In this document: positions 17,106 to 59,860 of the stretch, in pieces
Layout of the letters: the number at the start of each line of letters is the position of its first letter
How positions within the stretch are numbered: the stretch's first letter is position 1
Assembly: GCA_030324005.1 (NCBI GenBank)
Contig: JARDVH010000031.1
Coordinates: 71,062,287 to 71,126,286 of the forward strand
Length of the DNA: 64,000 bases
From: Negaprion brevirostris
Lineage: Eukaryota
Reading direction: 5' to 3'
Notes under the pieces: generated by a model
What the model was told of the DNA's origin: nothing
What the model saw: only the letters and a program-made list of their open reading frames with translations
Databases searched by the model: none
Program-made: the position numbers and the translations under genes

Positions 17106-18825
17106 CCTGGCGCTGGGGTAGATTTAAGGAAGCAACATTACTATTTATAGAATACATCTTGGCAAATTCATTCAATAGTGTACATTCTACACATAAATGG
17201 CTGTACATGATTGGTTGGGGCACATTTAAGCTAATTAGCTATCACTATTCAAATGATATGCAAATGATTGGCAACAAGGGGTTAAAATGGCAACCACTCA
17301 ATGGGTTGGTTATAGTTAGGGTGAACACATGTGGGAAAACAGTCCCTGTTGCACTCAAACCCAGAATAAATGCATGCGTTTTCATTTGTTATTGTCTAAA
17401 TAATTGTTGCACCAGTAGTTTTGTTGTAATGTATTTTTTTTTAAACTGTACAGCTCATCAGTCTTATACAGCAGACCGGGGACCACTTAAAAATACTTGG
17501 GATCACTTTTGCATTATAGTAAGTGCCATGATCATTTGTTTTGTTTGCATTGAGGTTTTCATTTCTCTATCTTCTAATTAGTGGGCATAAATATCCTGCT
17601 ATTTTACCAAGGAGACAAAAGGGATGACTCTTCTTCTAGTCATTCCCAATGACAGCATCAGTCAATTAAAGCACAATTTGATGAAAAAAGGGCAAGTTTG
17701 GCTGAGCTTCCAATCCAGCAGCTAGTCATTTTGCTTCAGTCAAGGCCCTTCAGGAATCTTTATACACCAGCCCATTAACAAGTATTACATTAACAAGGGC
17801 AGTTTATTATGATGGAAGTGAATCACTCATCTACATAATTAACAGGCTGCATTTTCTTTAGCTGTCAAGCTATAACAGCTTTTTTCCTTGCAAATTGCCG
17901 CTTCTGCTACCATATTTGACACAAAGAGTTTCAAGACTGAATGGAAAGGCAGGATCGCTGATGTTTTCAATCTAACAGCACACAAAGCATACATAGAGGG
18001 CACTTAAACTCTTTATATTTTCTAGTTTACACATTGCCACTACTGATGTTAGAGAAAGGCTCATTAGGACCAGCTGCATACATTTCTCCTTGTAAATCAG
18101 CAACATGACAATGGTGGCGGGAGTTCTTCCAGCATTTTCTGCCTTCCCCTTGTGAGGGAATCCTCATCCACAGATTGCTAGGAAAGGTGGAGTGGGAGTG
18201 GGGGGAAATAACGAGAGTTACTAATAAAGTAAGCCATTTCTATCGATGATGGTTGTCAGGAGCTGCAATACGCATGCACTTTTGTCACCAATTGCCGATT
18301 ATTCTAATAGTCAAGAACTGGATGCGTGCCAGATCATGAAAAAGGGTTCCGGTGCTGCCATGGTTTCACAAGTTCTAGGTTCTCAGTGTTTTAAAAGCAA
18401 AGGCTGAATGAAACGGCCTCATTGTAGATGTAATGCATGTGCAACTGCACTCCATTCATTGATAAAATTGTTCAAGATTGCATTTATAAAATTGGTACAG
18501 CTTGATGATTAATGCTGAGTCAAATTTCCCCCTCCCTGCCTCCTCCCCTCTTTCCTGACGGTGCTGATGGCCGCTGGGGTTAAGCTTCCATCAAAGCTTG
18601 CTATATGAATGTATCTTGCCCAAGTGACCATTCTTCATACGCAGGTCTAATTAATTATTGCCAACCCATTCAACTTGAAAGGCATCACTTCACAATAACA
18701 CACATTTACTTTCAAGCAGAGGTTATCAATCAACACTGATTGATTTGTTTTTCACTCTTCTAGACTTCTAGTATGGCAGCAATTGTGGCTTCCATACTGC
18801 TGTCTTGAGCTAGATAAGCTAACAG

Positions 18826-19062
18826 AATTCTGTAGAAAAGTCACACGGACTTGAAACGTTGGCTGAAATTTTACTGTCCCGCCCTCCACAAAACTGGAGT
18901 GGGCGAGGGGCAGATAATGGAAATGTCCATTGACATCGGGCAGGATTTTGTGGTTTAAGAATGATCGAGGCCGTAAAATCCTGCCCGTTAACTTCATTAC
19001 TCTCTCTCCACAGATAATACCAGACCTATTGAGCTTATCCAGCATTTTCTGTTTTCATTACA
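18826..19062 (+). mobile_element. Penelope-like terminus (family A) with hammerhead motif, split by a MITE
   Basis: CTGTAGA-aaagtcacacggactt-GAAA-c-GTT|MITE|GTT-aact...ctctctccacagat...gacctattgag...tccagcattttctgtttt. Confidence 0.75.
18861..18986. mobile_element. MITE (Harbinger-like), 126 bp, TSD GTT
   Basis: TIRs ggctgaaattttac / gtaaaatcctgccc; GTT at 18858-60 and 18987-89. Confidence 0.8.
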
Positions 19063-19194
19063 GAAACCTACTACCTTAGCATACTTTCACCTTTATAGCT
19101 GATGTTCATGGCCCATTATAGACCTGCTTCTGAGTAGATATTTCCATGCGTTACTGAGAGATAACTGCATTATTGGAAAGTTAAATTTTTGAGT

Positions 19195-20935: not shown

Positions 20936-21387
20936 AACAAAAACAAAGAAAAGTAGAGCACAGGAACAGGTCTTTCAGCCCTCCAAGCCTGTGTCCATCA
21001 TGATGCCCTAACTAAATTTAAAAAAAAACTTCTTTCCTTACTCAGTCCATATCCTTCTATTCCCTCCTAATCATGTGCCCATCCAGATGCTTCTTAAATA
21101 CTGCTGATGTGCCTACTTTCGCTACCTCCTTTGGGCAGTGCATTTCAGGCACCCACCACTCTCTGAGTGAAAAAATTCCCCTGAACATCTCCCTTAATCT
21201 TTCCCCCTCTTACCTTGAACCTGTGCCTCCTTGCAATTGGCACTTCCACCCTGGGAAAAGGCCTTTGACCATCCACCCTGTCTATGCCTCTCATAATTTT
21301 GTAGACCTCCATCAGGTCTCCCCTCAACCTCCATCTTTCCAGTAAAAACAATTGTAGTTTATTCAACCTTTCCTGATAGCCAACACC
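20936..21387 (-). mobile_element. CR1 (HER1-like) LINE 3' end
   Basis: ORF 21145-21504 reads YQERLNKLQLFLLERWRLRGDLMEVYKIMRGIDRVD...FFTQRVVGA; (aacaaag)n tail. Confidence 0.9.
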
Positions 21388-25220: not shown

Positions 25221-25890
25221 TAAAAGCAAAATACTGCAGATGCTGGAATCTGAAACAAAACAGAAAATGCTGGAAAATCTTAGCAAGTCTGACGGCACCT
25301 GTGGAGAGAGAATAGAGCCAATGTTTAGATTAGTTTAGTTCAACAACTTCAGAGCATGAACTCTCCCCCTCTCCCTTCACCCCCTTTCCATTTGTTTCCT
25401 TATTTTCGTCTCAGTCATCCATTTTTATCACCCTTCTTTCTCACTTCTCCATTTCTCCATTCCTGCTCTCCTTTTTGCCCCACCGCCACCCACCCTCCCA
25501 CCCTCCACCCCCCGCTTTCAGGGCAGCTGCTTTAACTACCTATACCTTTCCTTTGCCACTCACTCATTCAGATCACTTAAATAAGCACTTTCCTCAGCCT
25601 TCTTCATTCTAATTTATATTCTTTTTGGCCTATTACAGCACTGCCCCCACCCCCCTCACCTTCATAGTATAAATCTTTTCTGATTTTCTTTACTCTTAGC
25701 TCTGACGAAGGTTCATCCAGACTCAAAGCATCGACTGGAATTTGACTGGCACGCCCACCCCGGAATCGGAATTCTTCTGGGGCGGGATTTTATGAATCTT
25801 GCCCAAGCGAGGTCGGAAAATCCCAGCCATCAGCTCTACTCTCTCTCCACAGATGCTGTCAGATTTTCCAGCATTTTCTGTTTTTGATTT
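25221..25890. mobile_element. Penelope-like element (family A) with inverted terminal copies
   Basis: 25221-25355 (aaagcaaaatactgcagatgctgg...gtggagagag) is the reverse complement of 25690-25890; CTGACGA core at 25702; pyrimidine-rich interior. Inverted pseudo-LTRs are typical of Penelope elements. Confidence 0.75.
25733..25828. mobile_element. MITE (Harbinger-like), 96 bp, TSD ATC
   Basis: TIRs gactggaatttgac / ggaaaatcccagcc; ATC at 25730-32 and 25829-31. Confidence 0.8.
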
Positions 25891-26514
25891 AAATGGATTG
25901 TTCCACATATTCTGGTGAAGTTCCGTATCAGATTTTATCAATAAAAATAAACAGGTCTATTGTTAGAGCAATGACCCTGAATGGAGAGAAGCCTCTTTTG
26001 GGACACAAAAAGGAGTTTTACATTTGATATTTCCGACTAAGGAACCCATCTGATTGGAATCATTTGGATTCAGATTTCAAATTTGGCATCATTCTCTACT
26101 CTACGACTGATGATTCGCTTCTGCTGAAACCCATACAAAACATAACATTGCACCAACAATAGATCTGAATTGACTGTCAATGATATTATCCATTGAACAC
26201 TTTGTCATATTTGCATAATTTTCCCTTTTCATGATTCTATATTAACAGTATTATAAACAGATTTGAAACCCAAAGATACAGAAAAATATATGAATATGTT
26301 AATATTTTTCCATGAATGCTAGTGCCAATCATTTCTAGACTGCTGTCATACAATATCCTTATCAGGTAGAAATCCTCGTCCATGAACTTCATTGCCAAAT
26401 GCTCAAATACATACCTGTAACAATATTCTGCAAAAATCCACCTGTATTTAAATGGATTAAAGACTCCCTAAATTTCCCACAGCAATATGGAAGGGGGTGG
26501 GGTGGGGTGGGATT

Positions 26515-29180: not shown

Positions 29181-29350
29181 ATAAAAACATAATACTGAGG
29201 GCGCTGGAAATCTGAAATAGAAACAGAGAATGTGGTCTGGCAGGTCTGGCAGCATCCATGGACAGAGAAACAGAGGTAACATTTCAAGTTTGAATGACTT
29301 TTCTTCAGAGTGCAAAAGAGGTTAAAATTTGATGAATTTTATTCTTTTGA
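29181..29350 (-). mobile_element. Penelope-like terminus (family A), uninterrupted
   Basis: aatactg...gctggaaatctgaaatagaaacagagaatg...ggtctggcagcatc, homologous to 25221. Confidence 0.7.
29273..29312 (-). ncRNA. Minimal type I hammerhead ribozyme motif (Penelope-associated, stem I degenerate)
   Basis: CTGAAGA-a-aagt-cattcaa-actt-GAAA-t-GTT; the aagt/actt stem II pairs. This is the empty-site counterpart of 18830. Confidence 0.5.
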
Positions 29351-51324: not shown

Positions 51325-51990
51325 CAAGTGGATGTGAAGGCACTGGAGAGGGTACAGAGGAGACTCACAAGACTAATTCCAGGGATAAAGGCTCTTACAT
51401 ATGAGCATAGATTGGAGAGCTGGGACTGTATTCCTTGGAAAAATGAAGGCTGAGCTGAGACTTGATAGAGGTTGTCACGTTCCTGAAGGTTAATGGACAG
51501 GTTAGGTAGTGAGAAACTGTTCCCATTCGAGACAACACCCCAGGGATAAAGGCTCTTACATATGAGCATAGATTGGAGAGCTGGGACTGTATTCTTTGGA
51601 AAAATGAAGGCTGAGCTGAGACTTGATAGAGGTTGTCAGGTTCCTGAAGGTTAATGGACAGGATAGGTAGTGAGAAACTGTTCCCATTCGAGACAACATC
51701 AAGAACTGGAGGGCACTGATTCAAAGTAATTGGCAAGAAGTAACGTGAGAAAAGCTTTTTTTCATGTAAAGGGTGGTTGGAGTCTGGAACAATCTTCCTG
51801 AGAGGATTGTGGAGGCAGTTTCGATTGAGGTGTTGAAAACGGAATTGGATTATTATCTGAAAAGAAGGAATGTGCGAAGTTATGGGGCTGAGGCAAATTA
51901 GTGGGACCTGATAGAATGCTCTTTCTGAGAGACAGTGAAGGCTGAATGGGCCAATGGCCTGTTTCTACATTGTAAAGATCCTGTGAATCT
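51325..51990 (+). mobile_element. CR1 LINE 3' end with an internal tandem duplication
   Basis: DVKALERVQRRLTRLIPG; CR1 tail at about 51940-51990. Confidence 0.85.
51379..51700 (+). repeat. 161-bp tandem duplication
   Basis: ccagggataaaggctcttacatatgag starts at 51379 and at 51540; about 4 differences between copies. Confidence 0.9.
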
Positions 51991-55199: not shown

Positions 55200-56438
55200 C
55201 CTGACTGAGGGCAAAACTGCTCTTTTACATGGACAGGTGCCTCTGTGAACCATGACTATGCAAGGTGCAACCCTGCAACCCCCCCCAACTCTGTTCCCAC
55301 CCCTGCAGAAATGGTGGTGGGTGGGCTTGGAGGAAGGACATTTGGAATCAGACCTCCAGTGCCATTTCAGATACGCCAGAGACCCTCTCTGTCCAACCTT
55401 AACTCTCATGTCATTGAACTGAGATTGGGCTGGATTTATCACTCCAGGAGTGGGGAATAGATGTTGGCAGTGTTTCCAGGTCCTGAATTCTATCCCCAGT
55501 GGGAAACAATCACTGAGCTGTGATTTACCCTGGGGTGGCCAGAGACCAGGTTCACTGTCCAAATAAGGATAGCAGGCAGGATCTCAAATCTGAGGGCCAA
55601 TTGAACACCTCTCAGTTTACAAATTTTAATGGAAGGTAAATAAGCACTACAACATGGAAGTGGCCATCTCTTCATCTTTTCAAAATATTTATTTAAAAGA
55701 AAAATGATTCAGCAGCTAGGCCATGACTGTGGGACAGCAGGGATGTATGTGGTTTGGAGGCTGAGCTGGGGGAGGATTGGGGATCCTTCTACAGGGCAGC
55801 CTGTTCCAGCTCCTGCACCCTGGCATGCAGAGAGCGTCTATAGGCCTGCTTGAAGTTCTGGCCCACTAGGCTGGGTGGCATGGTGGCACAGTGGTCAGCA
55901 CCGCTGCCTAACGGCGCCCAGGACTCAGGTTTGATTCCCGACTTGGGTCACTGTTTGTGTGGAGTTTATATGCTTCTCCCTGTGTCTGTGTGGGTTTCCT
56001 CAGGGTGCTCTGCTTTCCTCCCACAGTCCAAAAGACTTGCTGGTTAGGTGCATTCTCCCTCAGGGTACATGAAAAGGCACGGAGTGTAGTATCTAGGGGA
56101 TTTTCACAATAGAATTATTGCAGTGTTATTTTACATGTACTTGTGACCAATAAATAAACTTTACCTTATTTTTACCATTGGGTTCCTACCTTCTGGCATT
56201 CAAACTGGCCCCAAACCCATGCAGGAACCTGGAGGATGCATGGAAAATTCCATTTGACTTCCTTGAGTTGGCCTCAATTAGGCTGTTAATGAGTCTGATT
56301 GGTCACATGTCACATGAGGGCACCTAACTATGCCAGCCCCCAATCAGAGGTGGGTCAGAGATAGGAAAGCCACATATTGGCCAGTTTGAGCCCCATCCGC
56401 CTCTGACCCTGGCCCTGGCAGGGGCTGAAAATCCAGCC
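55200..56438. mobile_element. Long Harbinger-like non-autonomous element (left end unresolved)
   Basis: Right TIR ctgaaaatccagcc; GC-rich interior like 32320; interrupted by a V-SINE. Confidence 0.5.
55873..56165 (+). mobile_element. V-SINE, alternative-tail subfamily
   Basis: tggcacagtgg A box; V-domain; tail ttgcagtgtt...acttgtgaccaataaataaacttt. Confidence 0.85.
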
Positions 56439-56554
56439 ATTAGACTTATTTCTCTTTCCACAGATGCTATCTGGCATTTTCTCCATTGTTAAAAGAAAAC
56501 TTGCATTTATATAGTGCCTTTCATGACAACAGAACACTCACAGATAATGATATA

Positions 56555-56699
56555 GAAGCAAAATACTGCAGGTGCTGGTAAATCTGAAACAAAAAAAACA
56601 GAAAGTGCTGGAAGTACTCAGTGGGTCTGGCAGCATGCATGGGCTGGAGAGAAAAACAGTTTTGAGTTGAATGTGATTCTTCTACAGCCTTGAAATGTT
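56555..56699. mobile_element. Penelope-like terminus (family A), inverted pair with deleted middle
   Basis: agcaaaatactgcaggtgctgg...gggtctggcagcat, then cttGAAAtGTT from the opposite-orientation copy. Confidence 0.65.
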
Positions 56700-56775
56700 A
56701 GGTGGGATTTTCTAGCTGCGATTGCCCGAAAATCCCGCCCGAGGCCAACGGACCTTTGCATGGTCTGTGTCCTGT
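56700..56775. mobile_element. MITE (Harbinger-like), left half
   Basis: aggtgggattttc TIR; aaatcccgcccgaggccaacggacc is the reverse complement of the 40083 body. Confidence 0.7.
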
Positions 56776-56782
56776 CTGCTAT

Positions 56783-56898
56783 GATTTGCACATTCTCCTC
56801 ATGTCTCCGTGGGTTTCCTCCGGGTGCTCTGGTTTCCTCCCACAGTCCAAAGATATGCGAGTTAGGTTGATTGGCCATGCTAAAATTGCCCCTTAGTG
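56783..56898 (+). mobile_element. HE1 V-SINE middle part
   Basis: gtgggtttcctccgggtgctctggtttcctcccacagtccaaagat. Confidence 0.8.
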
Positions 56899-59394: not shown

Positions 59395-59860
59395 ATTACA
59401 TAGAAACATGTAGAATCTTACAGCAAAGAGACATGTTTTTCAATCCAACATATTGATGCCAGTGTTTATGCTTCATACTAGCCTCCTCCCATCTTACTAC
59501 ATCTCACCATTTCAATATAACCTTTTATTCCTTCCTCCCCCATGAACTTATCTGGCTTCCCCTTAAATGCTATTTCTCTCAACTACTCTATGTGATAGTG
59601 CTTTCCATAGTCTCACCAATGTCTGGGCGAAAGTGCTCCTCCTGAATTCTTTAATAGTTTTAATAGTGGCTATTTTACATTGATAGCTACTGGTGTTGGA
59701 CTCTCTCACGTCTCTACATCTACCTTACCAAACCCATTCACAATATTACAGACCTCTATCAGGTTACCTCTCAGTCTCTTTTCACTACAAAAGAGACTGA
59801 GAGGTAACTTCAAAAGATTGCTTCAATCTTTCCTGATACCGTTATCCTCTCATTTCTAAT
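59395..59860 (-). mobile_element. Old CR1 LINE 3' end
   Basis: catagaa tail; collinear with 22650; gacctctatcaggttacctctcag encodes LRGxLIEV. Confidence 0.7.

Follow-up and report, generated by a model that had tools for sequence, protein, structure and literature searches.

Short DNA transposons (MITEs) in the genome of the shark Negaprion brevirostris have inserted repeatedly at one exact position of a Penelope-like retroelement, the NUH cleavage triplet of a minimal hammerhead ribozyme motif, and it is highly probable that this is an ordinary nested-insertion hotspot set by a Harbinger-type target preference. We analysed a 64-kb stretch of contig JARDVH010000031.1 (the window) within the 2.69-Gb genome, a sample of 140 stretches of 10 kb placed at round positions, 1.13 Mb in all once N is discounted, and a further 210 loci retrieved by pattern and similarity searches; five duplicate or self loci were dropped before the flank scans.

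Window junctions and the hammerhead-bearing host

At site 1 a 126-bp MITE lies between two GTT copies and splits a hammerhead motif exactly at its cleavage triplet (Table 1), just as an earlier, sequence-only reading had proposed. The 5' half consists of the 5' strand of helix I, CTGTAGA (18830-18836), helix II, GAAAC and the left GTT (18858-18860), with T at core position 6 where A is expected; the 3' half opens with the right GTT (18987-18989) and AACT, the 3' strand of helix I, and the host body ends at about 19071. That reading also had the same position hit at 25733, 56438 and 56700. Site 2 indeed repeats the layout of site 1, with ATC on either side of a 96-bp MITE, and site 3 carries ATT duplicates at the triplet position, though the insert is a different element of about 1 kb containing a nested SINE-like repeat (~55870-56160) and the host 5' core there is decayed. 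For site 4 half of the claim stands: the left junction, at which GAAATGTT meets the TIR, is visible, a SINE-like repeat and an N gap have taken the place of the right end, and neither the duplication nor a downstream host half can be seen. The copy read as empty at 29273-29312 is an empty host copy with a decayed motif. The ~365 bp between site 2 and the inverted host terminus beside it include host 3'-UTR-like sequence, partly common to another copy.

Table 1. Host and MITE features in the window
Feature	Position	Strand	Basis or remark
Site 1, 5' half of Penelope-type minimal hammerhead motif	18826..18860	+	sequence; host profile match 18824-18864
Site 1, MITE of 126 bp, group A2, Harbinger-type, non-autonomous	18861..18986	+	12-bp imperfect TIRs and internal TIR copy
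Site 1, 3' half: right GTT, helix I 3' strand, rest of host terminal-repeat body	18987..19071	+	
Site 2, hammerhead 5' half ending in left ATC duplicate	25691..25732	+	sequence and host profile
Site 2, MITE of 96 bp, group A1, internally deleted	25733..25828	+	ATC/ATC duplication
Site 2, host 3' half	25829..25897	+	sequence and host profile
Inverted second host terminus near site 2	25221..25326	-	
Empty host copy	29183..29313	-	hammerhead motif decayed
Site 3, ~1-kb element with the same TIR type	55427..56438		ATT/ATT at triplet position
Site 4, truncated group A3 MITE	56700..56786	-	follows GAAATGTT
Host terminus head-to-head with site 4	56554..56693	-	own triplet region deleted

An Rfam scan of the window gave no hammerhead family among its seven weak matches, and the motif was recognised by its anatomy and by comparison of host subfamilies. 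The core boxes C3-U-G-A-N-G-A9, G12-A-A-A15.1, C15.2-G16.2, U16.1 and H17 are all present in the subfamily consensuses of 64 copies, a set for which the search itself demanded near-matches to both core boxes. The predicted helices I and II are 58-83% paired over 4 + 5 positions, and three of nine pairs exceed shuffles at p < 0.02, related copies not being independent; the C3-G8 / U3-A8 association in the core (odds ratio 6.5, p = 0.0035) is driven by one subfamily. Covariation appears to lend the helices modest support. The U3-A8 variant with a GUC triplet marks host subfamily D (nine copies, L068, L102, L163 and L185 among them), as is reported of Schistosoma minimal hammerheads. The CTGTAGA variant (A6 to T) also recurs (window 18830-18836 and 56554-56693; loci L031 and L036), and it may be the sign of a subfamily instead of a product of decay.

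The anatomy agrees with the minimal hammerheads of Penelope-like elements as described in the available part of Cervera and De la Pena 2014 (PMC4209133): a type I core without a helix III loop, palindromic at 15.2-16.2 (ACGT in this host), a bulged base before helix II, a short helix I, sequence subfamilies including a U3-A8 variant, and mostly lone truncated copies. Unlike those described there, helix II here is about 5 bp. The same part of that text reports a related minimal hammerhead without activity as a monomer and with low activity as a dimer in vitro, and mentions neither sharks nor a DNA-transposon insertion into the motif.

The host terminus had 86 matches in the 1.13-Mb sample, from which we estimate tens of thousands of copies genome-wide. 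Most copies begin near the hammerhead core and are mostly lone terminal fragments; no full-length copy with two terminal repeats was present among the fetched loci, and the similarity between host copies at 1-1.4 kb upstream turned out to come from other common repeats. In eight of 128 host copies a decayed ORF end lies 110-398 nt upstream. Direct Pfam scans of these fragments were negative and single-fragment protein searches gave no result; a profile of five fragments alone succeeded, matching 14 proteins, in which the named relatives of the ORF end come from a skate and a horn shark; the repeats of the window likewise look chondrichthyan. Of the best four matched proteins, three have weak GIY-YIG matches below the Pfam cut-off (E 0.008-0.048), PF26215 occurs in three of the 14, and RT-like sequence lies upstream of the endonuclease in database relatives (one of the GIY-YIG matches). 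Weak GIY-YIG behind RT-like sequence amounts to a Penelope layout, and the profile, through these sub-cut-off matches, puts GIY-YIG where a Penelope-like element should have it, at the end of the ORF and shortly before the terminal repeat. A genome search with the GIY-YIG family returned five weak matches. The ORF-end profile and the motif anatomy together support the proposed Penelope host with a minimal hammerhead. Host termini are often inverted pairs, as expected for Penelope insertions (window 25221-25897 and 56554-56700; L084, L157, L062). Roughly 10-25 bases after the triplet the host consensus shows a run of pyrimidines and then CAG and ATG, which resembles a splice acceptor beside the ribozyme; Penelope terminal repeats are known to contain an intron.

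Three further features of the window were recorded: a near-perfect 76-bp inverted repeat at 59746-59821, with a weak microRNA-model score of 34.8 bits (gathering 95) and probably a palindrome; long inverted arms 16 kb apart (21141-21346 and 37641-37837) whose complementarity reaches 88%; and, at 51379-51698, a 161-bp tandem duplication with 98% identity.

Recurrence of the insertions and their target motif

To find junctions genome-wide we searched for a TIR followed by up to 14 arbitrary bases and a host anchor, with the reversed pattern as control. This gave 105 matches and none in the control; among the 100 matches listed, 85 lie at the triplet (counted by match length), so that insertions are not spread evenly along host copies and the position is a recurrent hotspot, as suspected. 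With a more distant anchor we found 163 junctions in the 30 bases upstream that hold the triplet vs 15 in the 30 bases downstream, five of the latter looking like host-derived TIR look-alikes. A search from the 5' side, whose short anchor admits unrelated neighbours, gave 232 matches and no controls, and about half of the 100 matches listed end at the triplet by eye. When 30 of the 163 junction loci were examined, 21 (~70%) were at the triplet, 19 by script and two by eye; +6 accounted for three or four, and -5, +2 and +8 for one or two apiece.

Host-blind MITEs, collected whether or not they lie in the host, give the proportion from the side of the MITE. They comprise 150 non-composite sites, 146 after removal of four from the window. 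Two of the 146 are at the triplet (1.4%, 95% interval 0.2-4.9%) and three more at -5, +2 and +6, making five within the hammerhead region. The window, with three or four triplet insertions among about ten MITEs, is above this rate; between 13 and 480 windows this rich are expected genome-wide for rates of 1.4-5%, so it is a plausible selected extreme. From the side of the host, we estimate that roughly one old end in ten carries a MITE, taking into account that 25 of 118 termini have an exact TIR.

The MITEs themselves fit the PIF/Harbinger type. Among 50 host-blind copies picked only for intact TIRs, a 3-bp duplication was exact in 24, a 2-bp one in four and a 4- or 5-bp one in none, in keeping with the 3-bp duplication first proposed; the same 50 copies rule out a longer or shorter duplication and a shifted TIR start. 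They combine short TIRs and a non-coding body with high copy number: the 12-bp TIR pattern at both ends defines 4538 elements of 114-144 bp genome-wide (no controls), and the 1.13-Mb sample holds 83 copies. The genome has at least 150 matches to PF13359 (DDE_Tnp_4), and no transposase match was obtained in 71 open frames from composite loci without a nearby upstream host half. Group A MITEs have an internal TIR copy about 48 bases from one end (window 18939-18949 and the group A consensus), giving a nested hairpin. Host copies have a median non-CpG divergence of 0.17-0.19 and the MITEs one of 0.13-0.17; both are old.

A position weight matrix trained on insertions outside Penelope had been suggested as a check. 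We built it from 95 clean non-host sites, leaving out any whose duplication copies differ at more than one base or whose TIRs are weak, and obtained an extended palindromic motif, RASAY-WNW-RTSTY. Run along the host, the matrix ranks the triplet first: on the consensus its score is 93 times background (99.9th percentile), and on real copies that are empty it is 110-231 times background. Of the weight between -12 and +18, 73-75% falls on the triplet, against the ~70% observed, and the matrix predicts minor sites at +6, +8, +2, -5 and -13, the junction anchors covering the region of the last poorly. In absolute terms it predicts that 0.14% of all insertions (31 strictly defined copies), or by arithmetic about 0.5% (56 copies), should fall at the triplet vs the 1.4% observed; such a low figure would follow if the training flanks have decayed and copies were missed in the count.

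The motif also resembles that of a known transposon. The available part of PMC3016246 quotes AAACAC-CWG-GTCTTT as the target consensus of Harbinger3_DR, whose palindromic flanks match ours position by position (A-C-A-C ... G-T-C-T), and that of PMC2836001 treats extended targets as a trait of the Harbinger superfamily. The 3-bp duplication, short TIRs and MITE derivatives are likewise shared, as far as these two sources describe them. Unlike the CWG of Harbinger3_DR, the duplicated triplet here is mostly WNW (ATA, AAT, ATG).

Clustering of empty sites revealed a second recurrent site, which served as a ribozyme-free control. It lies in the ORF end, identified by translation, of a LINE-like repeat that we take to be CR1 (loci L282, L157:3873-4000, L044 and L331-L350), and none of 20 strands carries a hammerhead core there. 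Three of the 146 host-blind insertions are at this site vs two at the triplet. Under the same search design, 31 of 34 junctions fall at one base with 626 empties, and in each of ten loci inspected the target's upstream half is present, in most of them together with a 3-bp duplication. Junctions relative to empties are 31/626 (5.0%) at the control and ~89/1371 (6.5%) at the triplet (Fisher p = 0.22-0.35), figures that are ratios rather than true occupancies and depend on the survival of different 4-mers. By matrix score the hammerhead site exceeds the control 1.9-fold; the ratio actually observed is 1.3. The matched control is a single site, and three of its copies qualified for inclusion among the 95 training sites. 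Since a site without a ribozyme is hit about equally, the hotspot likely arises from DNA target preference alone, the simpler of the two explanations first offered and the one that the off-host matrix also favours. Several MITE insertions lie in short tandem tails (8-bp unit) of another repeat, probably a third hotspot (L268, L284, L154, L171, L148, L119).

Weighing other origins of the hotspot

Most cases share one junction position, as they would if one or a few MITE-bearing Penelope composites had been copied by retrotransposition. The triplet composites (n = 23, of which L045 and L050 are doubtful) nevertheless comprise seven MITE groups, 15 in one orientation and eight in the other, with lengths from 96 bp to ~1 kb and several host subfamilies. 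In a tree of 143 group-A copies, placement of the 14 triplet copies in one clade is rejected (AU p = 0.0047), and the nearest relative is a free copy in 13 of the 14, about as random labels give. The triplet insertions are independent, as had been surmised; copying is refuted for the set as a whole and has next to no likelihood as its explanation.

Independent insertion would also follow from safe-harbour or ribozyme-directed targeting, in which a transposase has been selected to recognise the hammerhead core in the manner of Dada. A single-base hotspot common to several MITE groups and host subfamilies, with 163 junctions on the upstream side of one anchor and 15 on its downstream side, is what such an enzyme would produce. 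However, 144 of the 146 host-blind MITEs lie elsewhere, the off-host motif is similar to the target of zebrafish Harbinger3, the control site receives insertions about as often, and the triplet departs from the preferred right half, its first flanking base being A rather than G. The host-blind sample largely refutes this safe-harbour idea, which we regard as very improbable. Dada itself, as far as PMC3706591 (Kojima and Jurka 2013) describes it in the available part, is also a DNA transposon at a fixed site in a multicopy RNA motif, but is mostly confined to its target genes (snRNA, tRNA), makes 6-7 bp duplications and lacks TIRs, whereas the shark MITEs have TIRs, 3-bp duplications and ~99% of their insertions outside the triplet; most copies in one target, the hallmark of a Dada-like element, is not what the 2/146 at the triplet or 5/146 in the hammerhead region amount to. 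A milder variant keeps sequence preference and adds a boost from local DNA shape or nearby structure, either the AACGTT palindromic core or the helix II hairpin. The excess of the observed 1.4% over the matrix prediction speaks for it, as does the centring of the insertion beside a 6-bp palindrome; the hairpin-free control site is nonetheless equal per empty copy and at least equal in the host-blind set, and the relative spectrum within the host fits the matrix. We consider such a boost quite unlikely.

Sequence preference by itself likely accounts for the hotspot as follows. A Harbinger transposase, which we infer to have acted, likely prefers a palindromic DNA target of ~13 bp that the triplet region matches by chance: the ribozyme's conserved GAAAC serves as the left half, GTT as the duplicated triplet and helix I (AACTC) as most of the right half. 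With tens of thousands of host ends, one such good target turns into a visible single-base hotspot, at which several short DNA-transposon groups with 3-bp duplications have inserted independently. RNA function would have played no part.

Two refinements of this scheme were considered and set aside. A preference for already mutated ATT targets finds no clear difference behind it, the first base being G in ~13/85 composites vs 20/100 empties by eye; discordance between G and A in the two duplication copies indicates that many targets still had G at insertion. Escape of the host by subfamily change has no support, the youngest-looking subfamily having the highest target score.

Consequences for the ribozyme and wider meaning

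The claim that insertion disables the ribozyme found no support. The duplication keeps the triplet on the upstream half, and in 11 of 19 cases, a count equal to that for the native strand, the start of the MITE can pair at least three of four helix-I positions, G-U included. Only two of 64 empty copies keep the full core today. Since most hosts are old terminal fragments whose cores have decayed, an insertion probably met little ribozyme that it could still disable.

The sequence-only reading knew of no description of this arrangement, and we found no report of Harbinger MITEs in a Penelope hammerhead in the literature within scope, which left out most subscription journals, Repbase and supplements; the pairing is absent from the available parts of PMC3014272 and of bioRxiv 10.64898/2026.07.22.740005. 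The nearest parallel is the nested TE hotspots of Levy, Schwartz and Ast 2010 (PMC2836564), which, in the part available, likewise place a preferred integration motif at one position of a repeat; those are human TEs, and here the hotspot is a ribozyme cleavage triplet in a fish-type genome.

A more far-reaching joint reading would have the catalytic constraint (GAAAC, GUH, helix I) lock Penelope termini into a Harbinger target that is hard to mutate away. MITEs would then block perhaps a tenth of the old ends where the ribozyme cuts, conflict of element on element would shape the turnover of host subfamilies, and some G-rich MITE starts would re-form helix I and allow ribozyme cutting at the MITE boundary. 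This is speculative and quite unlikely.

The ordinary hotspot is informative in its own right. It is a clean natural example of how the target motif of one transposase creates single-base hotspots in other repeats, and it supplies a shark-type Harbinger target motif close to that of zebrafish. The coincidence with a functional RNA site shows why a matched control is called for. If occupancy should exceed the sequence prediction, or if active Penelope copies should be affected, the same junctions would point to a DNA transposon in conflict with, or targeted at, the ribozyme of a retroelement.
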